Shown in pieces: positions 6,612 to 63,335 of a stretch of DNA of 64,000 nucleotides. The DNA is from Candidatus Levyibacteriota bacterium (lineage in GTDB: Bacteria > Patescibacteriota > Microgenomatia > Levybacterales > UBA12049), in contig OY970292.1 of the NCBI GenBank assembly GCA_963716145.1, positions 469,171-533,170 on the forward strand, in the 5' to 3' direction. The position numbers were made by a program, and so were the translations under genes. Position 1 is the first letter of the stretch. Every line of letters starts with the position of its first letter. Under the pieces are notes generated by a model that ran no database searches, was not told where the DNA came from, and saw nothing but the letters and a program-made list of their open reading frames with translations.

Positions 6612-7808
6612 TTACTTAAATGTCTGAAAAATATCTTTGAAGGTTACCAGGATTATCAATCCGATTAATACCGCCATACCGATTGCATTTGCATACGCTT
6701 CAAATTTGGGGTTTAATTTACGTCTTGTTATAGCCTCTATTTCGATAAAAAATAATCTTCCGCCATCAAGACCGGGAATTGGGAGAATATTGAAAAATGC
6801 CAGAGAAAGAGAAAGTGTACCGGCTATATTGAGTATCTGCAGAAATGCCTCTTTCATGTCCGGAATTTTTATGACATCTCCGACTATTTTAAATATCATC
6901 ACAGGCCCTCCTACATTTTTACTAAGCGGTTCCGCGGTTTTTTCTTTGACAGACTGCTTGAATATTGTTTTTATTCCGTCCACGTTATAAAGAAATGTGT
7001 TGTATGTGTGAGAAAATCCTGAAAACATCATCTGCGAGGGCTTTTGGTAGCTGAGAATTGCCAGATTATATGGATTAAAATCAAAAGCTATACCAACTGA
7101 TCCTTCATTTTTGGGAGGTGAAACTCTAGGTGTAATTTTGGCTGAAAATTCCTTGTTCTTCCTTATATCAAACCATTCAATTGTTGTTTCTTTTCCCTTG
7201 TTTTTATTTATAATTGCTATTAGATCATTGTTGCTGGTAATTTTTTTATTGTTTATTGATGTAAGCACTGACGGAGGTTTAACTCCAGCCTTGTCAGCAG
7301 GAGAATTTGGAGCGACTCTGCCAATTGATGCGCCCTTGGGTATTATTTTCTGATTTACACCCATAAAATGCGGAGCATTCTCTCCCAATAAAGGGATTAC
7401 TGTCTGAAAATTGGAAATCCCCAAAAAAGCATAAAAAATAACAACAGCCAAAAGCAAGTTCATCACAACTCCGGCGATAATTACCGAGGCTCTCTGCCAA
7501 ATTGAACGGCTGAAAAAAGCCCGGTGCTCCGCAACTTTGAACTTTGAACTTTGAACTTTGAACTTGACGCGGCCGGCGCCAGCGTCGTCTTCTCCATACA
7601 ATTTAACAAACCCTCCAATAAGAGCCGGATAGAAAGAATAAAGAGTCTCTCCCCTTTTTACGGAAAATAACGCTTTTGTTAAGGGAAGACCAAATCCAAA
7701 TTCTTCAACCTTAATTCCAAACTTCTTGGCGACAAAAAAATGACCTGCTTCATGAATGAGAACCAATACTGAGAGAAGGAGAAGAAAAACAAGAGCGGTA
7801 ATAAACAT
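6612..7808 (-). CDS. rseP: RIP metalloprotease RseP (site-2 protease, M50 family with PDZ domain)
   Basis: HEAGHFFVAKKFGIKVEEFGFGLP (HExxH in TM1). Central PDZ-like region. C-terminal LDGG motif (NILPIPGLDGGRLFF). Confidence 0.85.
   Translation of the reverse strand: MFITALVFLLLLSVLVLIHEAGHFFVAKKFGIKVEEFGFGLPLTKALFSVKRGETLYSFYPALIGGFVKLYGEDDAGAGRVKFKVQSSKFKVAEHRAFFSRSIWQRASVIIAGVVMNLLLAVVIFYAFLGISNFQTVIPLLGENAPHFMGVNQKIIPKGASIGRVAPNSPADKAGVKPPSVLTSINNKKITSNNDLIAIINKNKGKETTIEWFDIRKNKEFSAKITPRVSPPKNEGSVGIAFDFNPYNLAILSYQKPSQMMFSGFSHTYNTFLYNVDGIKTIFKQSVKEKTAEPLSKNVGGPVMIFKIVGDVIKIPDMKEAFLQILNIAGTLSLSLAFFNILPIPGLDGGRLFFIEIEAITRRKLNPKFEAYANAIGMAVLIGLIILVTFKDIFQTFK
7533..7565. repeat. 33-nt tandem heptamer block (AACTTTG)x4+AACTT inserted in frame in rseP (codes FKVQSSKFKVQ)
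   Basis: Read directly from the sequence. An identical block occurs in topA at 45591-45623. Confidence 0.9.
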
Positions 7809-7843
7809 CTAGCTATTATAGCATATAGCCAATGGCATATGGC

Positions 7844-8227
7844 TTATAGAAGAGTTCGTTTAAACGCTTGAATTTTCTTTACTAAGATTTCAGCTTGTTC
7901 ATAGAATTCAAGTCTTTCTTTTTCAGTAATATATCCTTGCTCTTTGGCGAGATAAAGAAGAGAAACTGTTTCAAAAGCTGATTTGATAGCAATGTCTAAA
8001 AAGTGAGAAAAATCTTTTTTAGAACTGCTACCTGATCCTTCTGCTATATTTGTAGAAATAGAACTTACAGCTCTTCTTAACTGATTTGTTAACGCAAATA
8101 ATTCATCCTTGGGGAAATTTTTTGTTAATATATAGATCTTTTTTGCGTAATTTACCGCATCTTTCCAAATGTTTAAATGTTCAAACCGAAATGCCATACC
8201 TTGGTAATAGCTTATTGCATCTAACAA
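7844..8227 (-). CDS. four-helix-bundle protein (TIGR02436 / 23S rRNA intervening-sequence protein family)
   Basis: FEHLNIWKDAVNYAKKIYILTKNFPKDELFALTNQLRRAVSSISTNIAEGSG...DFSHFLDIAIKSAFETVSLLYLAKEQGYI matches the family signature. Flanked on both sides by GCYATWWGC heptamer repeats. Confidence 0.8.
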   Translation of the reverse strand: MLDAISYYQGMAFRFEHLNIWKDAVNYAKKIYILTKNFPKDELFALTNQLRRAVSSISTNIAEGSGSSSKKDFSHFLDIAIKSAFETVSLLYLAKEQGYITEKERLEFYEQAEILVKKIQAFKRTLL

Positions 8228-8315
8228 ATGGTTTCAAGTAGCCAAAAATGGTCAACTGCCATAAGCTATAAGCTATTTGCAATAAGCCGGCACTTGCTTG
8301 CAATAATGGCAAAAA

Positions 8316-9904: not shown

Positions 9905-10005
9905 CGGAAAACTCAGAAAACTCAGTAGTACAGTTGTTTCAGATCATCTGAAAAATCTGATAGTCAGAATCTCTGGCTTTCCGAGTATTCTGAGTGTTCT
10001 GAGAA
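9905..10005. mobile_element. about 100-nt palindromic dispersed element (copy A, intergenic tsf-frr), same family as the two in-frame copies in topA
   Basis: atttcggaaaactcagaaaactcag ... tcagatcatctga ... ccgagtattctgagtgttctgagaa. The ends are inverted repeats of each other, with an internal palindrome. Shares terminal words with the elements at 44499-44590 and 45224-45309. Confidence 0.55.
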
Positions 10006-10465: not shown

Positions 10466-10496
10466 AAATTTTGAATTATGAATTAGGAATAATGAA

Positions 10497-11450
10497 TTAT
10501 GATTTTTTTGCTTTTGGTTTTTTATCCTTTGCGGGTTTAACTTTTGGTTTTGTAGATTTACTAGGCTCCTTTTTCCCTGATTCTTGATTCTTAATTCCTG
10601 ATTCTTTTTCAACCGCACTTGTCGCCATTTCCTTTGCCCAGGTTGTGTCGGTTTTTTTAGCTTTGGCCTCTTCTTTTGCCTTCTCGGCCGCGATCTTTGC
10701 GTCCTCTTTCTCTTTCTCTACTGCCTCCTTTGCATCAATAATCTGCTTTGCGGATTTGCCTTCAATCCATGAATCAAAAATATAACTTATGATCAGCTTC
10801 AAACTCCCCACGGCGTCATCATTTGCGGGAATAGGGTAATCAATAATCATCGGATCGGAATTGGTATCTGTGATCCCAATTGAGGGTGTTCCCATTTTTA
10901 AAGCTTCTTCGGCTGCTGCGTGCTCTTCATGAGTATCTATAATAAAAACAGCGTCAGGAGTTCTGGTCATATCGGCAATTCCGCCGTAAAAATTTTCAAG
11001 TTTTTGACGATTTTTCTCCCATTCGCTTATTTCTTTTTTGGTATAACTCGCCTTTTCATTCTCATCCTGTAAACGGTAACTGATATCTGTTAATTTTTTG
11101 AAGTTTTTGGCAACTTCTGAAAAATTGGTGAGTGTTCCTCCGATCCAACGCTTTGTAACGAAATATAGACCTTGGGAACTTGTCTGATCAAGTCTTGTGA
11201 GTTCTTCGCGCAGAATTGTCTCAGCCTGTCTCTTGGTACCAAGAACAAGAAGTGTTCCTCCTTTTTTGGCTAAATCACGGACAAATTTACCTGCTTCTTC
11301 AAGTCCCTCTTTGGTCTTTTCCAAATCAATAATGTGGATATTGTCGCGGGTCTCAAAGATGAATTCACGCATCTTTGGATTTTGGCGGGAGACTTGGTGT
11401 CCGAAATGACAACCAGCCTCAAGTAATTCTTCAAGTGTAACGTTTCTCAT
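10497..11450 (-). CDS. rpsB: 30S ribosomal protein S2 with Lys-rich C-terminal extension; start at MRNVTLEEL
   Basis: LLEAGCHFGHQVSRQNPKM ... IIDTHEEHAAAEEALKMGTPSIGITDTNSDP matches S2. The C-terminal tail AKAKKTDTT...KPKAKKS is low complexity and contains the IKNQE repeat block. Confidence 0.9.
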   Translation of the reverse strand: MRNVTLEELLEAGCHFGHQVSRQNPKMREFIFETRDNIHIIDLEKTKEGLEEAGKFVRDLAKKGGTLLVLGTKRQAETILREELTRLDQTSSQGLYFVTKRWIGGTLTNFSEVAKNFKKLTDISYRLQDENEKASYTKKEISEWEKNRQKLENFYGGIADMTRTPDAVFIIDTHEEHAAAEEALKMGTPSIGITDTNSDPMIIDYPIPANDDAVGSLKLIISYIFDSWIEGKSAKQIIDAKEAVEKEKEDAKIAAEKAKEEAKAKKTDTTWAKEMATSAVEKESGIKNQESGKKEPSKSTKPKVKPAKDKKPKAKKS

Positions 11451-16148: not shown

Positions 16149-17125
16149 GCTTTATTTGCCTTCTTTCCCTGAGCTTCGTAGAATCCTCCCGCAACTGTTA
16201 GCTCTGCCTTAATGGGTGGGTGCGGATCATAATTTAGAAGTTCAACCAGTTCAGGACGGAAACTATCAAGATCTTTGAATTTGCCAAGTTTGATCGTCGG
16301 GAATGGTTTTGGTTTTCTTTTCAATTGCTCCTTTACCTGGTCAATGTGATTTTCATAAATATGCACATCACCAAAAGTATGTACAAATTCCCCCGGTTTG
16401 TAACCCAAAATTTTGGCCAGAATAATTGTCAGAAGAGCATAGCTTGCTATATTAAATGGTACTCCTAGAAAAACATCAGCGCTTCTTTGGTATAGTTGCA
16501 AATTTAATCTATTATTCTTGATATTCACCTGATACATATTGTGGCAAATCGGAAAGTAAGACGTATCTTCCTTAGTTGCCATTGTGTATAGGTATTCAGG
16601 ATTCCAGGAATTTACAATCGTGTTGTGAGCAAAAGGATCATCCGTAAGTTCCTGAATAACCCATTTTAGCTGGTCAATGGTGCGCCCTGAGCGGGTGGGC
16701 CAGCAGCGCCACAATTCTCCATAAATTCTTGGCAAATTCCCCCACTCTTTGGCAAATTTATTGTCTTCTGCGATTTTCTGAATAAACTCCTCCTTTGTTA
16801 AAACTTGATTCTTACTTCTTAATTCTTGCTTCTTCGCAAAAATCTTGTACGGGTAATCATCCCAGATATGGACATTGTTATCGACCAGATATTTTATATT
16901 GGAGTTGCCAGACATGAACCAATAAAGCTCGTGAAGTACTCCCTTCCAGTAGACTTTTTTCGTAGTTAAAAGAGGAAAACCTTCTGATAGATCAAACCTA
17001 ATTTGACGACCAAAAACGCCGTAAGAACTTACTCCTGTCCCACGATCATAATTCTTGTCCCCGTTTTTGAGGATGTCCTTAAGAAGATCCAAATATTGGT
17101 GTTCGGGATGAATTGACTTCGTCAT
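16145..17125 (-). CDS. thyA: thymidylate synthase (ThyA), start at MTKSIHPEHQYLDL; carries a low-complexity insertion (AKKQELRSKNQV)
   Basis: FGRQIRFDLSEGFPLLTTKKV..GVLHELYWFMSGNSN..YL...VHIWD, catalytic ICHNMYQ, ...SADVFLGVPFNIASYALLT are all ThyA motifs. Confidence 0.9.
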   Translation of the reverse strand: MTKSIHPEHQYLDLLKDILKNGDKNYDRGTGVSSYGVFGRQIRFDLSEGFPLLTTKKVYWKGVLHELYWFMSGNSNIKYLVDNNVHIWDDYPYKIFAKKQELRSKNQVLTKEEFIQKIAEDNKFAKEWGNLPRIYGELWRCWPTRSGRTIDQLKWVIQELTDDPFAHNTIVNSWNPEYLYTMATKEDTSYFPICHNMYQVNIKNNRLNLQLYQRSADVFLGVPFNIASYALLTIILAKILGYKPGEFVHTFGDVHIYENHIDQVKEQLKRKPKPFPTIKLGKFKDLDSFRPELVELLNYDPHPPIKAELTVAGGFYEAQGKKANKA

Positions 17126-21050: not shown

Positions 21051-21659
21051 CTAAACCTGCTTCTCTTTCTTCGTGGTAGTAACTCTTCCCCCTTGCCATT
21101 GGCCGCGGTACATATTACCTCCGCCTGAGACTTCTGAGAACTGTATGTGAACAATCCGCGCGCCGAGTTCGATAGTAACTGGAACCGGTCCTTCGTTTTT
21201 GAGACCAAAGTTCAATCCCCCACTATAGCCCGGCGGGACATTGCCTGTGCGGATGAATAAACCACTTCGATAAGTGGTAGAGCGAGGTGTAATACTTGCA
21301 GTTAGATTGTCGGGCATGTTAACTGATTCTATCGTCTTTATCAAAAAAAACTCTCCCGGCTTAATTACAATTTTTTGTTCTTTGTTCTTAGTTCTTGGAA
21401 AACCGTTCTCCGAAGAACTAAGATCTAAGACCTTTGAACCATTCTTAGCTCTTTGCTCTTTGTATTTCGCGATTAGCGAAACTTCGGCCGTGTGCCTTTC
21501 TGTGACTCCCAAGAAAGCTTTTCCTGAAATCTTGTAGACTTCCCCAAGCCGCAAGTCAAACCCCGCGCCTTCCGGATTGGTCAGTTCCCGCTCTGACAAA
21601 TTCTCAACAAGCTTTTTTGTTTTAACTAGCTTTAATAATTGCTTAGGTCCTAAAACCAT
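21051..21659 (-). CDS. dUTPase/dCTP deaminase superfamily protein (divergent Dcd-like, putative dUTP diphosphatase)
   Basis: PEGAGFDLRLGEVYKI and IKPGEFFLIKTIESVNMPDNLTASITPRSTTYRSGLFI match the Dcd/Dut trimeric beta-fold motifs. Much more divergent than the canonical dcd at 23749. Confidence 0.6.
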   Translation of the reverse strand: MVLGPKQLLKLVKTKKLVENLSERELTNPEGAGFDLRLGEVYKISGKAFLGVTERHTAEVSLIAKYKEQRAKNGSKVLDLSSSENGFPRTKNKEQKIVIKPGEFFLIKTIESVNMPDNLTASITPRSTTYRSGLFIRTGNVPPGYSGGLNFGLKNEGPVPVTIELGARIVHIQFSEVSGGGNMYRGQWQGGRVTTTKKEKQV

Positions 21660-23654: not shown

Positions 23655-23748
23655 GTTTTAAATTTCAAATAACTACCAATTTCAAATATCCAATTTCCAA
23701 TAATTTACATTTAGCATTTGAAATTTGACATTGGAAATTTGAAATTCA

Positions 23749-31697: not shown

Positions 31698-32189
31698 TTA
31701 TACTTTAATTTCCTGCTTAATGCCGGCTCTTTCTTTTACATCAGCCATTTTTGCTCTTAATTCTTCCAAAGTTACTTCTCTGTGTTGAGCTGAGGACTCC
31801 TTATAACGCCCGCTTAATATAGTCCTACCCTCATCGATTTTAATTGAATCTGCGCCGGGGAACCATTGGCTTACCGCAGGCGAATCAAGAAGTCTTCTGG
31901 CGCGCCCATTTGTATCGTCCCTATGAAGATCTACATTCTCCGAGTCGGCTTCCTTCGCTTGCGCTTCAATTAATGCATCAAACATTCCGACAGCATCGCC
32001 AACTTCAAGACTTTCGTATTTAGGCTTAGGATCGGGACCAGTTTCTCCTCTCAGCCCTCTCCATATCCTTCCCAACAAACTTCCTCCTCTTGGGGACTCA
32101 CCTGTGGACGCAGGAACCATATCTTCAACCATTGCGGGGGATTCTGATCTTCTCGGTTCTTGTATTTCTATATCACTTCCTTCGGCCAT
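31698..32189 (-). CDS. hypothetical protein (163 aa, acidic, no TM)
   Basis: Intact ORF, moderately GC-richer than the genome. No family recognised. Confidence 0.4.
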   Translation of the reverse strand: MAEGSDIEIQEPRRSESPAMVEDMVPASTGESPRGGSLLGRIWRGLRGETGPDPKPKYESLEVGDAVGMFDALIEAQAKEADSENVDLHRDDTNGRARRLLDSPAVSQWFPGADSIKIDEGRTILSGRYKESSAQHREVTLEELRAKMADVKERAGIKQEIKV

Positions 32190-34138: not shown

Positions 34139-34404
34139 GTTTGTTAATTTAAATACACTTTAAACTTTTAATTCTGCTTTGCAGAAAACCAAGATGTGGT
34201 AGGAGAGCGAGAGTAGAAATTGTTTTATCCTAAGTGACCTAACTAAGTGTTAGGTTGCTCCGATAAATCGGAGTTTGCGGATAAAACCAGACGCTACTCA
34301 CTTCATCTGTTGCCACATTTTTCCGTGCAGCCATTAGCCAATAGCTATTAGCTATTTGCCATATGCTACTACGTTATATGTCTTCCCCTTTCCTTAAAAA
34401 AAAG

Positions 34405-36275: not shown

Positions 36276-36424
36276 TTCGAGGACTAGGTATATGAAGAAG
36301 GTGGAAGGCTAATTTTCAATTTTTAATTTTCAGTTTTCAATCAAATTACAATGACACGATTTTGAAAATTTAAACATTGAAGCATTCAATGAAAATTGTA
36401 AATTGAGAATTGAGAATTCGGAGC

Positions 36425-37304: not shown

Positions 37305-37415
37305 TTAAACTTATAACTGATTACTTATAACTGATAACATTTCGTTATTGTTATTTGTTATGAGTTATCAGTCGTCATAACTTGTTATCTGTTATTAGTT
37401 ATCAGTTGGAGAACT
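37305..37415. repeat. AT-rich palindromic word-repeat element (TTATAACTGATAAC family)
   Basis: cttataactgattacttataactgataac ... gttatcagtcgtcataacttgttatctgttattagttatcag. A second copy is at 54905-54985. Confidence 0.6.
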
Positions 37416-39881: not shown

Positions 39882-40419
39882 AAGGATTATTAAGATGCCT
39901 CACCGCTTCGTACAATACAATTCCTAACGAAACCATAACATTCAGACTTATATTTACCCCATACATCGGCAACTCGACAATCTGATCACTCATTTTGAGC
40001 ACTTCTTCGGATACTCCGTCTGTCTCATGCCCGACAACTATCGCGACCGGGAATTTATATTCAACTTTATCATACGGCACAGCCCGCTTATCCAATTCCA
40101 CAGAAATCACCTGCAAATCTTTAATCTTTAATCTTAAATCCTTAATCGCCTCTTTGGCAGTCGGAGAATAGCTCCAATTCACCCACTCTGTCGTATTGAT
40201 TGAAGCTTTCTGGATTCTATGATTTGGTGGGGTTTCGGATCCTTCGCATAAAATCACCTTAGTTGCGGCAATTGCGTCAGCCAAGCGAAAAATAGCACCG
40301 ATATTGTAAGTATCCAGGACATTGTCCAAAACTATATAAATCGGATTTTTCTTGAGCTTTTTTTTCTCCTCTTCGTTAATTGGTGAGTGCCTCAAATCCT
40401 TCGCTGCGAGCTTGATCAT
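39874..40419 (-). CDS. SpoU/TrmH family RNA 2'-O-methyltransferase
   Basis: IYIVLDNVLDTYNIGAIFRLADA ... VVGHETDGVSEEVL ... NISLNVMVSLGIVLYE are the SPOUT class motifs. Contains an in-frame ttaatctttaatcttaaatcc low-complexity block (LRLKIKDLQ). Confidence 0.75.
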   Translation of the reverse strand: MIKLAAKDLRHSPINEEEKKKLKKNPIYIVLDNVLDTYNIGAIFRLADAIAATKVILCEGSETPPNHRIQKASINTTEWVNWSYSPTAKEAIKDLRLKIKDLQVISVELDKRAVPYDKVEYKFPVAIVVGHETDGVSEEVLKMSDQIVELPMYGVNISLNVMVSLGIVLYEAVRHLNNPSK

Positions 40420-43687: not shown

Positions 43688-45919
43688 TTAACTGCTTTGG
43701 AGTTTTACATTTTTGCTTTCTTTCGCTTCCGAGCTCTTGTTAATTTCTTCAAGTTTCCATGCCGCGAAGTCGCACTTCGGATAGTTCGCACAGCCATAGA
43801 ATTTGCGGCCTTTTCTGGTTTTGCGAATAATTACTTTCCCTCCGTCTTTTGGACACAAAACATTGGTCTCCTCAACAAAAGTTTTGGTGTATTTACATTC
43901 AGGAAATCTGCTGCATGAGAAAAATTTGCCAAATTTTCCGTGTCTTATCACAACCGGTGCACCGCACTCAGGACATTTTTCATCTGTTGCTTCTGTGGCT
44001 ATCGCTACCCGCACCGATCCTTCTGCCTCCTCAACCGCTTTCTCAAAAGGCGTGTAAAAATCCTTCATCATCTTGACCCATTGTACTTTTCCGCTTGCAA
44101 CATCATCCAGCTGTTCCTCCATCGAAGCGGTGAAGGGAATATCATCAATTGTTGAAAAATTGGCGACCAGAAAATCATTCACCGACATCCCAATTGGCGT
44201 GGGGACAAACTTTTTTTCAATCCGTTCAACATAAGCACGATCCACGAGGGTTGAAATAATGGAGGCATAAGTTGAAGGCCTGCCAATCCCCTTTTCCTCA
44301 AGAGTTCCGATAATTGACGCCTCATTGTATCTTGGAGGGGGAAGCGTTTCATGCTGCTCAAAACGCGCTTTAATTAGATCGAGTAACTCTTTTGCTAAAA
44401 ATTTTGGCAATTGATTATCTTTAAGCGCCTGGGGATTTAACTTCAAAAATCCGTCAAAGACCAAAACCGAACCAGCTGCTTTAAGTCGATATTTCGGAAC
44501 ACTCGGAAAACTCGGTGTATCAGTGTTTCTGACTTTCTGATCATCAGATTGTCTGACAGACTGGATTTCTGAGTGTTCGGAGTTTTCTGAAATTGCATCA
44601 ACTAAAACTGAAGTGGATTCGACAATAGCATCCGCCATCTGCGAGGACACTGCCCTCCTCCAAATCAAATCGTATAGCTTTGCATAATCTTTCCCGAGTT
44701 CATTCTGAACTATGAATTCTGAATTCTGAACCTTGGTGGGCCTGATTCCCTCATGGGCCTCCTGCGCGTTTTTCTGTTTGCCAGAAAAAATACGGGGTGC
44801 TTCGGGTAAGTATTTTTTCCCATATTCTTTTTCAACAAACGCTCTGAACTGGGAGATCGCGGCTTTTGAAATCGCTATTGAATCTGTTCTGTGATAAGTG
44901 ATGAAGCCTTCTTCATAAAGTTTTTGGGCAAGACTCATCGTCCGTTTTCCGGGAAATCCAAAGCGCCTGGATGCCTCTTGCTGAAGAGTTGAAGTTGTAA
45001 AAACAGGTCCCGGACTTCTCTTTGCTTGTTTTTGCACAACATCTGAAACTGTGAAATTGTTCTTTTCAAGATCGCGGGTAATCTCCTGAGCCCTTTTTTC
45101 ACTATCAATAGTTGTTCTTGTGACATTATATTCACCATCATAAAGTTCAAATTTTTCTTTTGCTTCGATCTTGCTGCCATTAATCTCAACCAGCTCAAAA
45201 TCTGTTCCTTCTTTGCCCAGAACACTCGGAAAACTCGGTCCGCCGGATTGTCTGATTGTCGGAGTATCAGAATCGCCGGATTTCTGAGTATTCTGAGTTT
45301 TCTGAGAAGAAACCAAGGTAGCATGAACTGTAAAATATGATTTCTTTGCAAATTTCTCAATCTCCCGCTCCCGCTCAACAATCATCCGTAGTGCAACGCT
45401 TTGTACACGCCCTGCTGACAAACCCCGGCGTACCTTTTTCCAGAGTAATGGCGACAATTCATAACCAACTAAACGATCCAAAACCCGCCTTGCAGTCTGC
45501 GCCTCAACCAAATTCATGTCAACTTCCCGTGGATTATCCAGGGCTTCTTTAATTGCCGATTCCGTAATTTCATGAAAAGCTATCCGCCTAAACTTTGAAC
45601 TTTGAACTTTGAACTTTGAACTTGAGAGGAGCACATCTCTGATGTGCGACGCGATAGCCTCCCCTTCGCGGTCCGGATCTGTTGCCAAAATTATCTTATC
45701 AGCCGATTTAGCAAGGGATTTTAGTTCAGCAATTAGTTTTTTCTTATCTGCAATTACTTCATAAAGCGGTGTAAAGTTGTGCTCAATATCGATTCCCATC
45801 TTGCTTTTGGGCAAATCCATGACATGACCCATTGAGAATTTGATCTCATAATCCTTCCCGAGGAATTTGCTAATTGTTCGGGCTTTAGTGGGTGATTCGA
45901 CAATTACTAAACTTTTCAT
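43688..45919 (-). CDS. topA: DNA topoisomerase I with three in-frame repeat-element insertions
   Basis: TOPRIM start MKSLVIVESPTKARTISKFLGKDYEIKFSMGHVMDLP. Catalytic region ...GFITYHRTDS. C-terminal Zn ribbons CPECGAPVVIRHGKFGKFFSCSRFPEC / CPKDGG...YGCANYPKC. Insertions are at aa 100-110 (SKFKVQSSKF), 203-233 and 440-476. Confidence 0.9.
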   Translation of the reverse strand: MKSLVIVESPTKARTISKFLGKDYEIKFSMGHVMDLPKSKMGIDIEHNFTPLYEVIADKKKLIAELKSLAKSADKIILATDPDREGEAIASHIRDVLLSSSKFKVQSSKFRRIAFHEITESAIKEALDNPREVDMNLVEAQTARRVLDRLVGYELSPLLWKKVRRGLSAGRVQSVALRMIVEREREIEKFAKKSYFTVHATLVSSQKTQNTQKSGDSDTPTIRQSGGPSFPSVLGKEGTDFELVEINGSKIEAKEKFELYDGEYNVTRTTIDSEKRAQEITRDLEKNNFTVSDVVQKQAKRSPGPVFTTSTLQQEASRRFGFPGKRTMSLAQKLYEEGFITYHRTDSIAISKAAISQFRAFVEKEYGKKYLPEAPRIFSGKQKNAQEAHEGIRPTKVQNSEFIVQNELGKDYAKLYDLIWRRAVSSQMADAIVESTSVLVDAISENSEHSEIQSVRQSDDQKVRNTDTPSFPSVPKYRLKAAGSVLVFDGFLKLNPQALKDNQLPKFLAKELLDLIKARFEQHETLPPPRYNEASIIGTLEEKGIGRPSTYASIISTLVDRAYVERIEKKFVPTPIGMSVNDFLVANFSTIDDIPFTASMEEQLDDVASGKVQWVKMMKDFYTPFEKAVEEAEGSVRVAIATEATDEKCPECGAPVVIRHGKFGKFFSCSRFPECKYTKTFVEETNVLCPKDGGKVIIRKTRKGRKFYGCANYPKCDFAAWKLEEINKSSEAKESKNVKLQSS
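44499..44590. mobile_element. palindromic dispersed element, copy C, in frame inside topA (adds ...SENSEHSEIQSVRQSDDQKVRNTDTPSFPSV...)
   Basis: cactcggaaaactcgg ... ctgatcatcag ... atttctgagtgttcggagttttctga. Same terminal words as copies A and B. Confidence 0.6.
45224..45309. mobile_element. palindromic dispersed element, copy B, in frame inside topA (adds VSSQKTQNTQKSGDSDTPTIRQSGGPSFPSV)
   Basis: cactcggaaaactcggtccgccggattgtctgattgtcggagtatcagaatcgccggatttctgagtattctgagttttctgag. Confidence 0.6.
45591..45623. repeat. 33-nt tandem heptamer block (AACTTTG)x4+AACTT in frame in topA; identical to 7533-7565
   Basis: Read directly from the sequence. Confidence 0.9.
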
Positions 45920-49711: not shown

Positions 49712-50333
49712 TATTCCCGCCAATTTCAAACTGCGTTTTCTTGCCAGTCTGACAGACGACTGTATTAGCATACTAATTTTTAGCCTATGTCTCTATTTCA
49801 TTTCGACTCAACCCACACTCTCTCTTGCGCTCTCCTCATTTTTGCTTTTCACCATACTGATTTTTCTTAATCCGATTGTGCTCTTTAATTCAATTCCTTT
49901 TACCCATTATTTGGGCGGTACACCCGGGAAATTACTTACTGGACTTAAAGTTACTGATGAATCGGGAAAACGGTTGACATTCAAGCGGATAATGTTCCGT
50001 CAAACCATCGGCTACAGCTTCTCAAGTCTTATTTTTGGACTCGGATTTTTCTCTATTGCAAAAGATCCAAAAAAACAAGGGTGGCATGATAAAGCAATTG
50101 GATCAACTGTATCAATAACACAAAACCTCTGGCCGCTTGCTCTCCTAACCTGCATAGTCACGTTTTCTTTTAGCGCTTACTTTGCAGGCTTAAGCTATCA
50201 TTCAGCCACAACCGGCCCATTAGCTAAGGAATCACAAACATTATGGAAACAGATAGAAGCCAGCACAAAGCAAAAAGCCAAAACAGACAAAAGCAAGCTT
50301 ATTCCCACTCCTTCGGTGAGTTACCCGAAATAA
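49683..50333 (+). CDS. RDD family membrane protein (second copy)
   Basis: RFLASLTDDCISILIF ... GGTPGKLLTGLKVTDESGKRL ... QGWHDKAIGSTV. Confidence 0.7.
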   Translation: MLLKENMKNNIPANFKLRFLASLTDDCISILIFSLCLYFISTQPTLSLALSSFLLFTILIFLNPIVLFNSIPFTHYLGGTPGKLLTGLKVTDESGKRLTFKRIMFRQTIGYSFSSLIFGLGFFSIAKDPKKQGWHDKAIGSTVSITQNLWPLALLTCIVTFSFSAYFAGLSYHSATTGPLAKESQTLWKQIEASTKQKAKTDKSKLIPTPSVSYPK

Positions 50334-50338: not shown

Positions 50339-51457
50339 TTATGTGGCGAGGCAAAAATCCGAAGCGCCTAGACTTCTGATTAAGCCTTTCATCTCCATAA
50401 GCGATAATATGCTTCCCAATTTTGAGGAATCAATTTTTGTCAGCTTTACAATTTGATCGAAATGCATATTTTCATTTTGTAAGATATCGATAATCTTCTG
50501 TTCGTCTTTCGTTGAACCTTTGATACTTTTGATACTTCCAAACCCTGATTCCTGATTCGCTTGCCCTGAGCCTGCCGAATGGGTAATTCTTAATTCCGCA
50601 AGGATCTCCTCCGCCCCGCTAATCAATTTAGCTCCTTTTGCAATTAGAGAATGCGGACCTTTGGAAAGACTGCTAGTGATCGGACCTGGAACCGCGAAAA
50701 CAGGGCGATTATTTTCAAACGCATCCGTCGCCGTATACAAAGCGCCGCTATCTGCTGCACCTTCTGTAACTATTACACCTTGTGAAAGTCCTGAAATAAT
50801 CCTATTTCTTGAAGGAAATGAGCCTTTTGAGGGTGGTTCACCTAACGGATACTCTGAAACAATTGCGCCGCCTGACTCCAGAATATTAGTGTAAATTCGC
50901 TGATTCTCACGTGGATAACAGCAATCCACTCCGCATCCCAAAACCGCAATTGTTCGGCCTTTATTTGCAATTGTTGCCTTGTGCGCCGTGGCATCAACTC
51001 CGAGTGCGAGTCCTGAAACAGTCACAAATCCATTGTTAACCAAATCAGTTGTCAGACTTTCTGTCACCTGTTTTCCGTACTCTGTAATTCTGCGTGTCCC
51101 TACAACAGCAATGGTCTTGAGGTTTTCTGCTGAATTAAAACTAAACTCCCCCTTAACATAAAGTATAAACGGCGGCTTTTTTATCTGACTCAAAAGCTTG
51201 GGGTAATCTTTATCAGTCAGAATCAAAAACGAAACTCCTACCTTTTTAAGCCTCTTTTCGTAATCGGAAATCGAAAACTTATCCCGGAAATCTATAAATT
51301 GAGGCGTTAATGCCTTACCCAGCACTTTTTCCAAAGAAGAAAGATCTGCTTTCCAGGCCTTCTCGGCAGTTCCAAACTCGTTAAGAAGTTTGACAAACTT
51401 CCCCGGCCCAATTCCTGAAAATGAGGAAAACCCCAGCCAGTAAGATTTTTCTTGCAT
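50339..51457 (-). CDS. dprA: DNA-processing protein DprA (Smf)
   Basis: VGTRRITEYGKQVTESL ... SGLALGVDATAHKATIANKGRTIAVLGCGVDCCYP..N ... GAIVSEYPLGEPPSKGSFPSRNRIISGLS is the Rossmann-like DprA core. C-terminal wHTH-like domain. Confidence 0.85.
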   Translation of the reverse strand: MQEKSYWLGFSSFSGIGPGKFVKLLNEFGTAEKAWKADLSSLEKVLGKALTPQFIDFRDKFSISDYEKRLKKVGVSFLILTDKDYPKLLSQIKKPPFILYVKGEFSFNSAENLKTIAVVGTRRITEYGKQVTESLTTDLVNNGFVTVSGLALGVDATAHKATIANKGRTIAVLGCGVDCCYPRENQRIYTNILESGGAIVSEYPLGEPPSKGSFPSRNRIISGLSQGVIVTEGAADSGALYTATDAFENNRPVFAVPGPITSSLSKGPHSLIAKGAKLISGAEEILAELRITHSAGSGQANQESGFGSIKSIKGSTKDEQKIIDILQNENMHFDQIVKLTKIDSSKLGSILSLMEMKGLIRSLGASDFCLAT

Positions 51458-52579: not shown

Positions 52580-54412
52580 TTACCTTTTCGTGAAATACGC
52601 CTCCAGGATCTTCTTCGCAATTGGTGCTGCCTCATTTGACCCTTCACCGCTCTCCTCATTGAGGACTGTTACAACAATTTCAGGATTATATGCCGGTGCA
52701 AAAAGCGTGATCCATGCATGAGGCAATGTTTTCTCTCCACCATGCTGGGCAGTTCCCGTCTTGCATGCAATCTTAACTTCCCGGAGATCTTTTGCAGCAG
52801 CAGATCCGCTCGCTTGTTTTACTTCCAAAATATTTTTTCCGTCAATTCTTAATTCTGAATTCTTAATTCTGAAGTTAAAAAGCGGCCAGGCTACCCCGCC
52901 AGTTGAGCAACTCTCAATCATCCCCTGCCGGATCAAGCTAATCGTTTTTTCGTCCAGTAATTTTTGATTTCTGATTTTTGATTTCTGATTTTTGAGCAAA
53001 TGTGGTTCGTATAAAGAACCACCATTTGCGACTACCTCTGTCCATTCATTCACTTGAAGAGGTGTTGTCAGGAGAAATCCCTGTCCAATTCCATAATGAT
53101 AAGTATCTCCCAAATACCAATTCTCCCCAATTATATCTTTTTTCCATTTTTCCGTTGGGACCAGTCCTTTCGCTTCCCCACCCAAATCAATGCCTGTTTT
53201 TGCTCCCAATCCAAATTTTTCTGCCATTTCGGATAGCTTGTCAGCGCTTACTTTCTCTGCTAATTTGTAGAAAAAAATGTCGTTGGATCTAGCCAATGCC
53301 CTTACAACATTTAACTCTCCTGGTTCTGTCCTGCCGTATCCTGTATAATACCAATTGGCAAAAGAGAACTCCCCAACTTTTATAATCCCGGTATCCCTTA
53401 TCCGATAATTCTCATCAATAATTTTGTCTGCGAGTCCAGTCGATGCCGTTACTATTTTAAAGGTCGATCCTGGCGGATAAGTTCCCCCAATTGCTCGGTT
53501 AAGAAGCGGCTGGTTTTGCGAATCAGATAAAATTTCGCTTACGTTTTTGTGAGCACTATCCGAAGCCGCCCTGTAAGTCTTGTCTAGCGTAAAAAGATTG
53601 GGATCAAAAGATGGTCTTGAAATCAAAGACAAAATTTCGCCATTCGGAGTTGATACAATTACAGCCCCTTTTTTAACATTTTTTGTGGCATCAAAAGCTG
53701 CTTGCTGAAGTTTTGAGTCGATAGTTAAGGTGAGATCTTGCCCTGCAATAGAATCTGTTGTCCCCAGTGGGCGGACTTTTTTGCCCATGGCGTCGACTTC
53801 GACAAGCTGTTTGCCGTCAACTCCTTTAAGAATATGTTCATACTGCCTTTCAATTCCATTTTTACCAATCCAGTCCGTGCCGCGGTAATCGCCAAACTCA
53901 GTAGTATCAAGCTCAGATTTTGAAATCTGACCAATGTATCCCAATACGTGACTCAGACTGTCTTTGTAGACATAGTCTCTTAGCGAATCAACCTCCAGAT
54001 TCTTATCTCCTTTTGCAATCAACGGCAGGGCCTGCTCTTTCGAAAGCGGCACGGTAGTTTCTGGTTCACACTTTTGCGCTTTTTCGCTCTTGCACTCTTG
54101 CACTTTATTATTTATCTGCCTGAAACCGGGCTTATTTAGAACAAGGGGAACTCCACTGCGGTCAAATATAACCCCTCGGGGGGCATGGATGACTTGGGTT
54201 CTGATTCTATTGGAATCGGACAGAATACGATAATCAGCACCTTTAATAACCTGCAGATAAAATAACTTTGGCAGGAGAATAATTCCAACCCCCAGCAACA
54301 CAAGCGGCAGTAAAAACCCCCGCACAGCATATGCAGATGGACCATCTGAATAGCGCCTCTTTTTAATTTTCTCGGTTTTTATGTGCTCTCCAAAAGCGTA
54401 TCCGGTCTTCAT
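52580..54412 (-). CDS. mrdA: penicillin-binding protein 2 (elongasome transpeptidase)
   Basis: N-terminal TM. Dimerisation domain. Transpeptidase motifs STFKIVTASTGL (SxxK), SND-like, KTG (IACKTGTAQ). Adjacent to mreD/mreC/mreB. Carries two in-frame low-complexity blocks (NSELRIKNSE, KSKIRNQKLL). Confidence 0.85.
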   Translation of the reverse strand: MKTGYAFGEHIKTEKIKKRRYSDGPSAYAVRGFLLPLVLLGVGIILLPKLFYLQVIKGADYRILSDSNRIRTQVIHAPRGVIFDRSGVPLVLNKPGFRQINNKVQECKSEKAQKCEPETTVPLSKEQALPLIAKGDKNLEVDSLRDYVYKDSLSHVLGYIGQISKSELDTTEFGDYRGTDWIGKNGIERQYEHILKGVDGKQLVEVDAMGKKVRPLGTTDSIAGQDLTLTIDSKLQQAAFDATKNVKKGAVIVSTPNGEILSLISRPSFDPNLFTLDKTYRAASDSAHKNVSEILSDSQNQPLLNRAIGGTYPPGSTFKIVTASTGLADKIIDENYRIRDTGIIKVGEFSFANWYYTGYGRTEPGELNVVRALARSNDIFFYKLAEKVSADKLSEMAEKFGLGAKTGIDLGGEAKGLVPTEKWKKDIIGENWYLGDTYHYGIGQGFLLTTPLQVNEWTEVVANGGSLYEPHLLKNQKSKIRNQKLLDEKTISLIRQGMIESCSTGGVAWPLFNFRIKNSELRIDGKNILEVKQASGSAAAKDLREVKIACKTGTAQHGGEKTLPHAWITLFAPAYNPEIVVTVLNEESGEGSNEAAPIAKKILEAYFTKR

Positions 54413-54420
54413 AGATAATT

Positions 54421-54508
54421 TTCAGTTTTCAATTTAAAATTTGAAATGAATATCCAATGTTATAAATTTAAATTTTTAAAATTTAGGATTTAATGAAAAT
54501 TGAAAATT
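54421..54508. repeat. AT-rich palindromic word-repeat element (GAAAATTGAAAATT family) between PBP2 start and mreD stop
   Basis: aattttcagttttcaatttaaaatttgaaa ... gaaaattgaaaatttcaaattgaaaatttt forms an inverted repeat. Family members are at 23655-23748, 36291-36420, 57801-57928, 61017-61075 and 63241-63335. Confidence 0.6.
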
Positions 54509-54913
54509 TCAAATTGAAAATTTTGTGGTTTTCATAATAGCAAATAAAGATACTGCAATTATACAACTAACTCCTGCTTGCAAAAATACTCCTCCGTGCC
54601 CAAAAACCAGCAAATACACGTATGCTCCCGCAAATGAACTGACTATTATGAAGGGATACGAATGTATTTCATACTTGCGCTGATACAAAAGCACCATTAA
54701 AAAAAACAGCAATAAAAAAATGCTTGATGATCCTAAAATTCTGAGATTAAATATATCCAAAAATATACCTGCCGCAAAAGCAAGTGCAAAAATAATAGAC
54801 GTTCTTTTTGCAATACTAATACTCAGAAGAAGTACAAAACTCAGGGGGATTGAAATAACAGTTGCCTCAAAAAGAGCAGAAATAAAGAGTAAAACTAACA
54901 AAATTACGAACAT
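54509..54913 (-). CDS. mreD: rod shape-determining protein MreD (putative)
   Basis: 134-aa protein with 4-5 TM helices immediately downstream of mreC and upstream of PBP2, the canonical mreBCD-mrdA order. Confidence 0.5.
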   Translation of the reverse strand: MFVILLVLLFISALFEATVISIPLSFVLLLSISIAKRTSIIFALAFAAGIFLDIFNLRILGSSSIFLLLFFLMVLLYQRKYEIHSYPFIIVSSFAGAYVYLLVFGHGGVFLQAGVSCIIAVSLFAIMKTTKFSI

Positions 54914-54966
54914 AAACTTATAACTTATAACTTATAACTTATAACTGAGTTATCAGTTATCGGTCA

Positions 54967-55724
54967 TCAGTTATTAGTGGTGATCACAAACACAGTCTCC
55001 AATTTGTTAAAATCAACCAAACTTCTTATATCCGCGGATTGAAATAGATTGCTTGCTTTTTTATTTACTGACACTATTTTTCCGACTACCAGATCAGGCG
55101 GAAATCCTAGACCATTTTCGTCCGTATCTCCCTTTGTGCTGACCAAATCGTCTTTTTCCAATCCTTCTGCCAAAACTACATTATCAAGCACCAGTCCTCC
55201 CGCTTGTCCACGTATTATTCCGAGGAGCCTGTTTTAAGTGTTTTTGCGGTAAATGATATGTTGCTTGAAATAAGCCTTATAATTGAAAGATGTTGAGATG
55301 CTTTGTCTACCTTACCAACCAGATTGTCTTTTACAACAACCACCTGCCCCTTTTTTATGCCGTCTGCCTGTCCTTTGTCTATTATGATAGTCTCCCCCAT
55401 CCCACCTATTACCATTGCCGGTAAAAGCGTTCTTGGGGATGGATTTGCGGTTTCGAATTGATCCCTAAGGGCCTGGATTTCATGTACCTGTTCTGTCTGC
55501 TTTACTAGCTCTGATGCCAATTTTGCATTTTCCTCTCGCAACTTTACTGTCTCTCCTCTATCTGAATTTATTGTGCCAAAAACCGTCCGCTGCAAAGGAA
55601 GTGTTGCACCCTCAAAAAAACCGGTTAAACCGGCGAGATATCCGGCGCGGGATAAAACAAAAAGAAGTATTGCAAGAATAAAAAAAATCAAAAAAACAGG
55701 GAAAAAGCTCTTCCTCTTTTGCAT
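54967..55724 (-). CDS. mreC: rod shape-determining protein MreC, interrupted by a 1-nt frameshift near 55205
   Basis: ORF 55215-55724 has the TM plus coiled coil (ENAKLASELVKQTEQVHEIQALRDQ) and first beta domain. ORF 54967-55191 has the conserved C-terminal domain (GLVLDNVVLAEGLEKDDLVSTKGDTDENGLGFPPDLVVGKIV). Restoring one G in tcgg(g)aataata joins them. Confidence 0.75.
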
Positions 55725-56531: not shown

Positions 56532-57655
56532 CTATCTCAATCCCCCAATTACCTTCACCCTCTCAAGTAACTGTTCGTTTTCCAGAACTTTTCCGGTACC
56601 ACGTACTACCGATGTCATTGGGTCGGATGAGACAAAAACAGGCATATGCACCCTCTCAACAATCAGCTGATCAAAACCTTCCAGGTTGGCACCTCCTCCT
56701 GTCAGGAGAATTCCTTGCTCCAGGATATCAGGCAAAAGCTCAGGCGGTGTCTCTTCTATCACATCGGCAATAGCCTGAATGATTTTATTTATAACTGGAG
56801 AAAGTGCTTCACGTATTTCTGCTTCTGTTATTTTCAAGCTTTTGGGGAGTCCTGTCTCAATATCCCTCCCCCTGACAATCATAACTTTGCTTGTTTTGTC
56901 CAATTCAGATTTATCGTCATCCTCTTCCTTTCCTTGTTCTAGGTTCTTAGTTCTAAGTTTTGAGCTTCGCTCAAAAGCGCTTCCTATCTTTATTTTTATA
57001 TTTTCAGCAGTTGATTCCCCAAGAAGCATTCCATGACGAAGGCGTACGTAATGCAGAATAGCTTGATCCATCTCATCCCCCGCCAACTTCATAGAGCGCC
57101 CTACAACAATTCCGCCAAGAGAGATAACCGCAATCTCTGTGGTTCCGCCTCCTATATCAACAACCATTACACCTTTTGATTGAAAAATGGAGATATTTTC
57201 ACCAAGCGCCGCTGCCATCGGTTCCTCGATAAGATATGCTTCCCGAGCACCTGCTGACAACGCTGCCTCCCAAACAGCACGTCTTTGTACTTCAGTCACT
57301 GCTGAGGGATCCCGATCACAACTTTTGGCCGCACAAACATCCCGGTCAATTTTCCGCCTAATTCATGAACTTGCTTTATGTAATGAGAGATTAGGGTAAC
57401 TGTAGCGTCAAAATCAGCAATTGTACCACCGGTTAAAGGTCTTACCGTTACAATTGAATCGGGAGTTTTCCCCAGCATTTTTTTGGCTTCCGAGCCTATC
57501 GCGATAATCTGTTTGGTCTTTTTATGTCTTGCCACAACTGCCGGTTCTCTTATAACAATCCCTTTGTCTTTGACAAAAACTAACGTATTGGCAGTACCGA
57601 GGTCAATTCCCATGTCCAAACTAAATAAGCCATAGAAGGAATTTAGTATATTCAT
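56532..57655 (-). CDS. mreB: rod shape-determining protein MreB, interrupted by a 1-nt frameshift near 57297
   Basis: N-terminal part DMGIDLGTANTLVFVKDKGIVIREPAVVA...RPKVVIGIP (ORF 57296-57781). C-terminal part TEVQRRAVWEAALSAGAREAYLIEEPMAAALG...VVDIGGGTTEIAVISLGG (ORF 56532-57299). Expected join is ...VVIGIPSAVTEVQRRAV... Confidence 0.85.
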
Positions 57656-57928
57656 ATCAAAACCAATTCTATCAGCTTGTCCCGTTAGAAATCCAGTATT
57701 AATACTTCTGATTAATATAACAAAATGCATCAATTTTATAAAAGTTAGCTTGAAAATTTTTCTAACGGGGCTTGCCCACATTTTTCCAATATGATAACAT
57801 CATAAAAGAATTTAAAATTTTCAATTTTTAATTTTCATTGAATTTTCAATTATTAAGTTTTTAATGTTTTAAACATTTTAAATTATGATTTCATTGAAAA
57901 TTTCAAATTTCGAATTGAAAATTAAACT

Positions 57929-60425: not shown

Positions 60426-61016
60426 ATGAAGATTGTTCAGGCGCCAAATGAAGTTTTGGCAAATCCCTCCCAACCGGTTAGAAAGATTGATAAATCAATC
60501 CACGCTCTTCTTAAAGAGATGGAGAAATCACTTCTTACGGCAACAGATCCTGAAGGAGTTGGCCTCGCTGCACCGCAAATCGGCAAGGGCCTACAAATTT
60601 TCATAGTCAAAGAAAATCCTGAAGCAAAGTTAAAGGTATTTATAAATCCGGTTATTGAAAGTTTTGTAGAAAAACCAAAAGAAGAAAATTTAGTTGCCGT
60701 TCAAAGTAAAAAAACCTCAAAAGCCAAGAAAAAGGCAGGCATTAAAAAAGGCGTCCAGCTGGAAGGCTGCCTCTCACTTAAAGATATTTGGGGAGTTGTC
60801 AAGCGTCATGACGAAGTTGTTTTATCCTTCATGGATGAAAATGGTGTGCAGCACAAAAAGACATTTGATGGGTTTCTGAGCGTAATTATTCAGCATGAAT
60901 ACGACCATCTGCAGGGAATTCTCTTTCCCAAAAGAGTCCTTGAGCAGAAAGAAAAACTTTACAAATCGGTAAAAAATAAAAAAGGCGAGACGGAATTTGA
61001 GGAACTGGAAATTTAA
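60426..61016 (+). CDS. def: peptide deformylase
   Basis: Motif I GVGLAAPQIG, motif II EGCLS, motif III HEYDHLQG. K-rich insert between motifs I and II. Confidence 0.85.
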   Translation: MKIVQAPNEVLANPSQPVRKIDKSIHALLKEMEKSLLTATDPEGVGLAAPQIGKGLQIFIVKENPEAKLKVFINPVIESFVEKPKEENLVAVQSKKTSKAKKKAGIKKGVQLEGCLSLKDIWGVVKRHDEVVLSFMDENGVQHKKTFDGFLSVIIQHEYDHLQGILFPKRVLEQKEKLYKSVKNKKGETEFEELEI

Positions 61017-61037
61017 ATTTTAAACATTAAAAATTGA

Positions 61038-63193: not shown

Positions 63194-63335
63194 CATAGGA
63201 AAATATGATAACATATTAGAAGAAAATTTTCAATTCGATCCGCCAGTTGGCGAATTCAATCATGTTTCAATTTTTAAACATTTTGTCATTGAAAATTCAA
63301 TAAAAATTGAAAACTGAAAATTAAAAATTATTACT

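Follow-up and report, generated by a model that had tools for sequence, protein, structure and literature searches.

In a 64,000-nt stretch of the genome of a Candidatus Levyibacteriota bacterium (contig OY970292.1, positions 469,171 to 533,170; hereafter the window), we found a dense population of head-to-tail arrays of seven-nucleotide units. About half of them (20 of 39) lie inside genes, essential genes among them, and at matching positions of orthologous proteins the arrays mostly keep their length while the repeated unit differs. The host is a Levybacteria-type Candidate Phyla Radiation (CPR) genome of 1.14 Mb. The arrays are probably heptanucleotide simple-sequence repeats (SSRs), of the kind known as short tandemly repeated repetitive (STRR) sequences or long SSRs, homogenised by out-of-register copying and filtered by protein selection.

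The initial annotation of this DNA had described one family of 25-40-nt low-complexity blocks, built of AAGAATC-like words and scattered in frame through many genes. The flagged words are indeed in excess over chance: the 16-mer AGAATCAAGAATTAAG, taken with up to three mismatches, has 27 matches in the window against 1.66 expected (top of 100 shuffles: 5). Within each site these matches are spaced by exactly 7 nt, so that the object is a period-7 tandem array and neither a 16-mer word nor a family of 25-40-nt blocks. All the sites listed earlier (rpsB tail, thyA, SpoU, PBP2, ligase, fmt) hold arrays, and the flagged AAGAATC/AAGAATT/AAGAAGT blocks are head-to-tail heptanucleotides in about 4-5 copies (27-36 nt). 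The repeats are therefore real but do not form one family: the units in SpoU and at PBP2 52960 are AAGATTA and AAATCAR, and the AAGAATC type is a subset of a far larger heptamer-repeat population, intergenic arrays included, with at least 15 unit classes in about 40 arrays. The units seen by Tandem Repeats Finder (TRF) include AACTTTG, AATTTTC, TCTTACT, ATTGGAA, AACTTAT and AAGAATC, and some arrays have perfect 14-nt super-periods. TRF returned 41 period-7 rows in the 64 kb against 1.17 (maximum 4) in third-order Markov sequences. When codons were permuted within genes and intergenic DNA was left untouched, about 18 rows remained, which implies about 23 intragenic arrays where about one is expected, a roughly 20-fold intragenic excess. 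Eight repeats with a 7-nt period are exact over at least three copies, and none is with a period of 5, 6, 8 or 9. An assembly artefact was ruled out, since the arrays recur at orthologous sites of independent assemblies.

Pfam confirmed the host genes as S2, EF-Ts, ThyA, SpoU, PBP2, the Wzy_C/TPR "ligase", Fmt, TopA and RseP, and every array-bearing gene is read in frame through its arrays. The earlier remark that the same nucleotide words give the same peptide in unrelated proteins was borne out, and simple arithmetic explains it: since gcd(7,3)=1, a run of three units spans exactly seven codons whichever frame is read, so RIKNQES or RIKNQEL become common to unrelated proteins, and every frame of (AAGAATC)n is a rotation of K-N-Q-E-S-R-I. 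Shared RIKNQEL, LTSYFLL and KFKVQSS peptides should hence not be annotated as homology or domains. The LTSYFLLLTS-type peptide does occur twice in the ligase, where TCTTACT arrays encode LTSYFLL in two membrane segments. Two readings had to be corrected. At positions 10577-10612 (minus-strand sequence at 10576-10606: AAGAATCAGGAATTAAGAATCAAGAATCAGG) the coding frame is the C-terminal tail of rpsB, ESGIKNQESG, and the KKNQELRIKNQ frame is a non-coding extension upstream of the real tsf start (MANIDL, ~10465). The supposed open reading frame (ORF) at 58657 is an out-of-frame ORF within the ligase gene that reads the same array as the ligase.

The strongest clue to the nature of the arrays is their behaviour among relatives, whose loci or genomes we designate L001-L024 and compared by codon-threaded alignments. 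In PBP2, topA, RseP, MreB, SpoU and fmt, arrays stand at matching protein positions in the orthologues, mostly with unchanged length and with a different unit. PBP2 site S1 (residues 474-485, 12 residues) is an array hot spot in many orthologues: the window has AAATCAG/AAATCAA, L003 and L006 have AAAAATC x4, L014 GTCAGAA x4, L020 AAGAACC x4.6, L010 CCAAGAA, L008 AAAACCC, L002 AAGATCA, L021 an AAAGGGG-type unit, L022 AAAAGCG/AAAAACG and L001 the 8-mer AAAAGCGC. This 8-nt unit occupies both the MreB linker and PBP2 S1 of L001 (7189-7239, 11388-11406), where all other genomes have 7-nt units. The MreB linker shows AGAACTA, GATCAAA x5, AAAGGGG, AAAAATC x4, AAAAGTT and AAAAGCGC across the genomes, and the SpoU site, at equal place and length, TCTCAAA x4 (L003), AACTCAA (L011) and an AAATCTC type (L019, L020). 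At topA S5 the AAGTTCA x4.7 of the window corresponds to AAAAACG x4 (L022), an AAAATCA type (L019) and CAAATTC (L021); at the RseP site its AAGTTCA corresponds to AAAGTTA x4.9 (L023) and AAAGTGC x3.7 (L024). The fmt segment is equally long in all orthologues, with a 14-mer variant in L002, and the topA 44702 site holds CAGTCGT x3.6 in L020. The S2 tail carries the same array type in L024 and none in the closest relative, L023, and the DNA of the ligase 59700 array is conserved in L006, L019 and L008 and partly in L001.

The same pattern is visible in the proteins. At S1, at least 25 of 120 PBP2 orthologues show stretches of at least three residues that recur at lag 7, with peptides as different as KNQKSKIKNQK, KSQKSEVRSQK, KNQEPRTKNQE, KNQESRIKNQE, KGERVKRKGER, KSSKFKVKSSK, KSEKRKTKSEK and KDQRSKIKDQN. 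Over the whole protein, the 120 orthologues contain 43 such runs at lag 7, against 10 and 8 at lags 6 and 5, and no orthologue is a length variant of +/-7 residues (+/-7 nt) at S1. An origin of the 32-nt length mode as 11 nt plus one in-frame 21-nt expansion is ruled out at length-conserved sites, array-free orthologues not being seven residues shorter. Units at one site usually differ by one or two substitutions carried in all copies, and there are intermediate states, namely perfect 14-nt super-periods and the mixed arrays of L021 and L022. All-copy substitutions and intermediates are what concerted evolution in place leaves behind, and repeated insertion does not leave this signature. Array position is kept within the Levybacteria clade; with respect to unrelated lineages it is kept neither in the Woesebacteria orthologue, which is without PBP2 S2 and the MreB linker, nor in solved structures, to which PBP2 residues 476-560 could not be aligned.

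Stop codons explain the orientation and composition of the coding arrays. The consensus unit is cyclically stop-free on the sense strand in 14 of 20 coding arrays, every perfect one included, vs 5 of 20 on the antisense strand. AAGAATT and AAGAATC alternate in fmt and PBP2 because AAGAATT contains TAA, two such units at most being tolerated. TCTTACT, the complement of AAGAAGT, is stop-free. Depending on its orientation, one unit family encodes either hydrophilic peptides or membrane helices. The array segments evolve fast, with amino-acid identities to relatives of 0.41-0.54 vs 0.73-0.76 elsewhere. At conserved residues within arrays, codon identity exceeds the level predicted from those amino acids elsewhere in the genes (z = 2.4-3.3, five of six genome pairs). 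This extra synonymous conservation fits homogenisation, because each unit position serves as codon positions 1, 2 and 3 in successive units, and a "synonymous" change therefore cannot spread without a change in the protein. Direct selection on periodic DNA or RNA would be consistent with this conservation too. In an AlphaFold model of PBP2 (predicted local distance difference test score, pLDDT, 84), S1 and S2 fall in confidently predicted strand-loop elements, that of S2 exceeding pLDDT 90, and hydrophilic patterns are partly conserved (FKVKNxKLKIDGKN in PBP2, KELRIK in fmt). A DNA-level process can thus fix the sequence of structured protein segments.

Part of the initial annotation's explanation thus stands. 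A cause at the level of DNA is upheld by a period of 7 and not 21 nt, by the turnover of units at orthologous sites and by the synonymous conservation; spread of ready-made blocks from a repeat pool finds no support in the arrays of PBP2, topA, RseP, SpoU and fmt, which are equal-length segments whose unit changed in place. We propose that out-of-register copying between neighbouring units, in replication or repair, would both make the arrays and keep them uniform, either by slipped-strand mispairing or by transient misalignment at 7- or 14-nt offsets. A change in one unit would then be either erased or spread to all units, that is, undergo concerted evolution. Selection on the host protein would retain only arrays that are stop-free in the sense strand, frame- and length-neutral and placed in tolerant segments. 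A-rich units (K/N/Q/E/S/R/I) would be tolerated in tails, linkers and surface strand-loop elements, and the T-rich complementary units (L/F/Y/S/T) in membrane helices. The misalignment itself we infer; the arrays, their positions and turnover, the stop-codon rule and the codon conservation are observations.

Several results sit uneasily with this proposal. Although one-unit slippage would shift the reading frame, essential genes keep perfect arrays of fixed length, and a length-neutral homogenising step inside genes has to be assumed. Perfect-array lengths peak at 31-33 nt with no geometric decay, where simple slippage predicts otherwise, and nothing we found explains the period of seven. An intergenic array arm that is unchanged in three genomes, as well as rare units that recur at two loci of one genome (both described below), also count against it. 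It may be that an active process working in a 7-nt register in Levybacteria-type CPR bacteria re-homogenises ~32-nt tracts in essential genes and at gene starts, an idea we put forward tentatively. Candidates for such a process are misaligned gene conversion that leaves length unchanged and rewriting guided by a trans-acting template. If true, it would explain perfect non-triplet repeats at fixed positions over deep divergence, block switching and occasional co-switching at several loci, and would amount to a molecular drive that dictates which amino acids make up surface hairpins, linkers and even membrane helices. Rewriting by a retroelement or of the diversity-generating-retroelement (DGR) kind found no support.

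We are more doubtful that the arrays of one genome are copies of each other, ready-made arrays or hairpin elements having moved or converted ectopically. An identical 35-nt AAGTTCA array is present in RseP and topA of the window, and rare units occur at two loci of one genome: AAAAGCGC in L001 and AAGATCA in L002, each at PBP2 S1 and the MreB linker; AAAA[AG]CG in L022 (PBP2 S1, topA S5); AAAGTGC in L021/L024 (RseP, ligase); and, in L006, two units twice each. Judged from these sequences, the recurring rare units hint at inter-locus exchange or a trans-acting determinant. Similarity across sites of at least 18/21 was found in 11 of 79 same-genome pairs vs 58 of 1130 between-genome pairs, while global permutation tests for a genome-specific unit repertoire were weak (p = 0.04 and 0.11); many units, AAAAATC, AAGAAGT and AAGAATC among them, are common to several genomes. 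Exchange between array loci is accordingly possible, if unproven, the site-restricted comparison being suggestive. The narrow length mode of ~32 nt would also fit an element of fixed size. Against dispersal, the flagged arrays are not insertions, since orthologues without an array, or with another unit, are equally long; units at one site differ between species by the one or two all-copy substitutions that in-place concerted evolution expects; and neither duplicated target sites nor flanks in common were seen.

Movement is evident for some small elements. A ~95-nt hairpin of inverted 9-mer arrays (CTCAGAAAA ... TTCTGAGTA) has two copies in the window with 79% identity, one intergenic between frr and tsf (9905-10005) and one an in-frame insertion in topA (45215-45310, residues ~205-234), whose RNA folds have z = -3.2 and -3.7; L008, L019 and L020 carry unrelated inserts at the topA site. 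A GC-rich in-frame mini-element of ~21-24 nt (TTCGGCAGGCTCAGGACAAGC-like; peptides SFGRLRT, SFGSAQD, SAGSGQA) lies at 50559-50579 and 36148-36168, at 11459-11482 of L002 and at PBP2 S1 of L019, often within or beside heptamer arrays; the S1 array is interrupted by it in L002, L019 and several further PBP2 orthologues. A ~125-nt composite 5' of the ligase gene occurs in the window and, with another unit, in L006, and is absent from L001, L002 and L004. Only the topA hairpin and this composite are discrete insertions, whereas the flagged arrays replace segments of equal length.

Two ligase loops of L002 (loops 1 and 2, ~4900-5000 and ~5650-5760) share a ~110-nt composite, a duplication inside the ligase gene, ordered as A-rich array, palindrome CAAAACGTTTTG, GAAAATTCGAAATTG and T-rich array (peptide NLENSKLFRI). 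We considered it as a dispersed miniature inverted-repeat transposable element (MITE) and rejected this, since its core motifs are found in the L002 and L006 ligase loops only, which points to internal duplication. Other GC-rich hairpin inserts stand in frame in fmt of L008, L011, L002 and L021 (LPAPIKSGPAGRQGH, PASPAGGQGGP, SLRGIEEDEAIPS, ICHPELVSGSNIESKIPDQVRNDKE), one of them splitting an AAGAATT array.

It is unlikely that the arrays are functional cis-elements, periodic DNA or RNA read by some factor as promoter, leader or hairpin, or as a binding site or structural signal in genes. Intergenic arrays adjoin the start codons of tsf, PBP2, the ligase, 54913, 63336 and fmt, much as the TAACTGA arrays of Beggiatoaceae are concentrated 5' of start codons (PMC4679880). 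A Shine-Dalgarno-like motif precedes just 4 of 66 window genes, the 3' end of the 16S rRNA being canonical (GATCACCTCCTTTC), and TTGACA-N17-TAnnnT stands upstream of many genes, its end ~6 nt short of the ATG (e.g. the 31698-32189, 51563-52114 and 56163-52492 region starts), a placement that suggests leaderless mRNAs. The (TTGAAAA)n array at 57894-57922, which is the distal array of the ligase 5' composite, has the form TTGAAA-N17-GAAAAT, and 6 nt separate its end from the ligase ATG. An array of this unit is intrinsically promoter-shaped once it reaches 29 nt (4.1 units). Promoter-like sites in arrays do exist, but their total is not above shuffles (13 vs 9.2 +/- 2.9).

Inverted matches of at least 6/7 link 6 of 19 neighbouring intergenic array pairs vs 7.8% of distant pairs, and for several of these inverted pairs folding is significant, with z from -3 to -5. 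The coding arrays that had been flagged stand alone. The ligase 58795 array is an imperfect inverted partner of the 58745 array (fold z = -2.6). The RNA folds of the rpsB tail-tsf intergenic pair (z = -0.44), ligase loop 2 and two AATTTTC pairs are no better than shuffles, and Rfam over the window found the 16S rRNA and two tRNAs only, with no match at arrays. The (AGTTATA)x4.6 arm next to the ATG (54915-54946) matches L020 (9530-9560) and L021 (9545-9576) at 31/31 positions, its inverted partner having diverged across the three genomes. With PBP2 identity at 72-73%, such constancy suggests function over neutral slippage at this arm, and the synonymous conservation in coding arrays is unusual too; yet units vary freely at each coding site and the window holds at least 15 classes, which makes a single reader unlikely.

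That the arrays are phase-variable contingency loci, where gain or loss of a 7-nt unit shifts the frame, is very improbable. The likeliest candidate would be the ligase, a Wzy_C/TPR membrane protein with at least seven arrays and loops whose lengths vary greatly between species, and heptanucleotide repeats are reported to control hmw expression in Haemophilus (PMC8262952). Most hosts are, however, essential housekeeping genes (rpsB, topA, fmt, thyA, PBP2, mreB, RseP), a surface function fitting the ligase only; all array-bearing genes are in frame through their arrays, the one frameshift, in mreB, lying ~340 nt off; and the arrays are short (4-5 units), with no copy-number variation at length-conserved sites among 120 orthologues. 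The idea that nucleotide similarity is a by-product of selection on proteins for low-complexity peptides rich in K/N/Q/E, combined with a strong A/T bias in codon use, draws on the hydrophilic surface sites and their partly conserved patterns and is largely refuted, being scarcely credible given a DNA period of 7 and not 21 nt, a single site at which many unrelated peptides all have exact 7-residue periodicity, hydrophilic peptides or membrane helices from one unit family according to orientation, equal arrays in non-coding DNA and the loss of the intragenic signal on codon permutation.

Table 1. Heptamer arrays of the window, with positions counted from its first nucleotide; the upper rows are coding arrays, the lower rows intergenic arrays and hairpins.
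Feature	Position	Strand	Unit, peptide or remark
rpsB tail (focal site)	10576..10606	-	AGAATCA/GGAATTA x4.1; ESGIKNQESG
thyA	16797..16834	-	AAGAAGC/AAGAATT/AAGAAGT/AAGAATC; KKQELRSKNQ
SpoU methyltransferase	40116..40147	-	AAGATTA x4.6; IKDLRLKIKDL
PBP2 site S2	52841..52873	-	AGAATTA/AGAATTC, perfect 14-nt super-period; FRIKNSELRI
PBP2 site S1	52960..52995	-	AAATCAG/AAATCAA, 14-nt super-period 100% perfect; KNQKSKIRNQK
Wzy_C/O-antigen-ligase-like gene	58745..58775	+	AAGAATC x3.9, perfect; KNQESRIKN
Ligase	58795..58834	+	TCTTACT x4.6 (complement of AAGAAGT); LTSYFLLLTS
Ligase membrane segment	58967..58993	+	TTTAATC type, FLIFNLLFLIFN
Ligase loop 2	59376..59474	+	TCAAAAT array, then perfect ATTGGAA x4.6
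Ligase	59636..59660	+	two-unit block GAGAATC AAGAATT AAGG (ENQELRK); exact 16-mer within
Ligase transmembrane helix	59700..59735	+	TCTTACT x5.1, perfect; LLLTSYFLLLT
fmt C-terminal domain	61760..61796	+	AAGAATT/AAGAATC; ARIKNQELRIK
RseP (M50 protease)	7533..7565	-	AAGTTCA x4.7, perfect; KFKVQSSKFKV
topA site S5	45591..45623	-	35-nt AAGTTCA array identical to that of RseP; SSKFKVQSSKF
topA	44702..44730	-	TTCAGAA type; VQNSEFIVQNE
dprA-like gene	50544..50558	-	GAATCAG x2, adjoining GC-rich 21-nt mini-insert 50559-50579
mreB lineage-specific linker	56936..56959	-	AGAACTA type; SKLRTKNLE; different unit in every relative
Gene 21051-21659	21374..21462	-	two short arrays, GAACAAA and GCAAAGA
Tail of gene 49683-50333	50262..50296	+	degenerate AGCAAAA array
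rpsB stop to tsf ATG	10467..10502	-	TCATAAT type on gene strand; imperfect inverted partner of tail array; conserved in L024
Upstream of RseP start	7817..7849		TATAGCA type; inverted partner at 8261-8287
Intergenic array	8261..8287		ATAAGCT
Inverted pair, hairpin	23676..23746		CCAATTT / ATTKGAA; fold z = -3.6
3' of 16S rRNA gene	34329..34362		AGCCATT type
Inverted pair	36311..36418		AATTTTC ... GAAAATT, 48-nt spacer
Inverted arrays, hairpin	37308..37407		AACTKAT ... GTTATCA; fold z = -5.0
Immediately 5' of PBP2 ATG	54417..54522		inverted pair AATTTTC ... TGAAAAT; also in L002
Hairpin at ATG 54913 (gene after mreC)	54915..54978		AACTTAT x4.6 (perfect) + AGTTATC x4.4; fold z = -4.1
Ligase 5' composite	57816..57936		~125 nt: AATTTTC array, spacer, GAAAATT array; between conserved promoter and ligase ATG; z = -3.0
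def-fmt junction and fmt start	61009..61068		AAATTGA type
Directly 5' of ATG 63336	63301..63330		TGAAAAT/TAAAAAT

A few observations on the surrounding genes complete the picture of the window (Table 1). The thyA array lies within the variable insert of L. casei type. mreB is present as two minus-strand ORFs (57296-57781 and 56532-57299) owing to a 1-nt frameshift at GGGATCCCTCAGCAGTG (57290-57305), ~340 nt from the mreB array; MreB is an intact single protein of 375 residues in the closest relative, L019 (VVIGIPSAVTEVQRR). The frameshift may be real or may stem from a homopolymer error of long-read assembly. The minus strand also carries the 16S rRNA gene (34405-35881) and two tRNA genes (32232-32304 and 33270-33342), and several ORFs listed there are spurious. 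Longer coding tandem repeats, with periods of 129, 27/45 and 36 nt, at 27165-27624, 36612-36725 and 46047-46237, are in large secreted or DUF11-type proteins and are unrelated to the heptamer arrays.

The heptamer-array trait belongs to the lineage, with varying intensity. Period-7 arrays number 6.4 per 10 kb in the window, 10.1 in L006, 9.2 in L019, 8.5 in L011 and 5.8 in L002, falling to 3.8 in L001, ~2.3 in L003 and L008, and ~1 or less in L004, the Woesebacteria locus L005 and the outgroups. The PBP2 relatives in GTDB genomes and metagenomes are Levybacteria/Patescibacteria metagenome-assembled genomes (MAGs) with 61-81% identity, and a metagenome scan for close relatives found none above 68%. 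With ~6 arrays per 10 kb in very small genomes, the alignable sites in universal proteins constitute a natural replicate series over hundreds of MAGs. Because these sites can be aligned, rates of unit switching, homogenisation and decay are measurable against a protein clock, which is impossible for intergenic STRR sequences.

Heptanucleotide repeats of bacteria have been known since 1990, and their excess since 2007, and we know of no mechanism or function established for them. STRR sequences form several unit families per genome, in many copies and with other very small repeats alongside; to our knowledge they, too, have neither a known function nor a known mechanism. The window arrays resemble them in having exact 7-nt units, head to tail, in many arrays and several unit families, and differ in that the host is a CPR/Levybacteria genome and not a cyanobacterium, the units are AT-rich, about half of the arrays lie in coding genes instead of a predominantly intergenic location, and the unit is replaced over time in orthologous arrays whose position and length stay the same. 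STRR sequences were described as heptanucleotide repeats from cyanobacteria that form heterocysts (Calothrix, Nostoc, Anabaena; Mazel et al. 1990, as related in PMC4692102). Long SSRs are runs of 5-11-nt units that exceed chance length, 7 nt being the commonest unit size, and those of heptanucleotides are over-represented in some prokaryotes (Mrazek, Guo and Shah 2007, as related in PMC4679880 and PMC4692102), an excess attributed to polymerase slippage without proof (PMC4679880, PMC4692102). The window, too, shows an excess specific to 7 nt over 5, 6, 8 and 9 nt; as that survey is represented in the citing papers, however, non-triplet units were mainly outside genes, unlike the intragenic excess found here, and the Levybacteria lineage was not part of it.

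Marine Beggiatoaceae, as well as some cyanobacteria and Bacteroidetes, have TAACTGA direct repeats (PMC4679880), which are likewise heptamer arrays (2-6 copies), often directly 5' of start codons, and stop codons bar one orientation from genes while the other encodes a 7-residue repeat; they differ in having one dominant unit per genome, nearly all intergenic, against at least 15 units in the window. The GGGAATC / GGGGA(T/C)T heptamer repeats of Xanthomonas and Nostoc (PMC4692102) share a marked preference for about four units and are highly variable in sequence and length at orthologous intergenic sites. Their four-unit preference was ascribed to G-quadruplexes (PMC4692102), which is inapplicable to the AT-rich window arrays. 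A preference for about four units such as that of Xanthomonas therefore needs no G-quadruplexes. DNA uptake sequences (uptake signal sequences, USS, and DUS) consist of one fixed motif per genome, neither tandem nor 7-periodic, with inverted pairs between genes; like the window arrays they are over-represented at the DNA level and tolerated in less constrained parts of proteins, whereas the window has no single dominant motif among its unit classes. Repetitive extragenic palindromic (REP) sequences, REPINs and MITE-like hairpins (PMC3116915) recall the intergenic arrays that form folding inverted pairs and the two-copy ~95-nt hairpin, and differ from the flagged coding arrays, which are solitary, not insertions and without shared ends. 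In the literature that we searched, no publication ties heptamer or simple-sequence repeats to CPR bacteria. What is new here is the lineage, the density, the intragenic place in essential genes and the positional conservation with block-wise turnover of the unit, the known heptamer systems being essentially intergenic.

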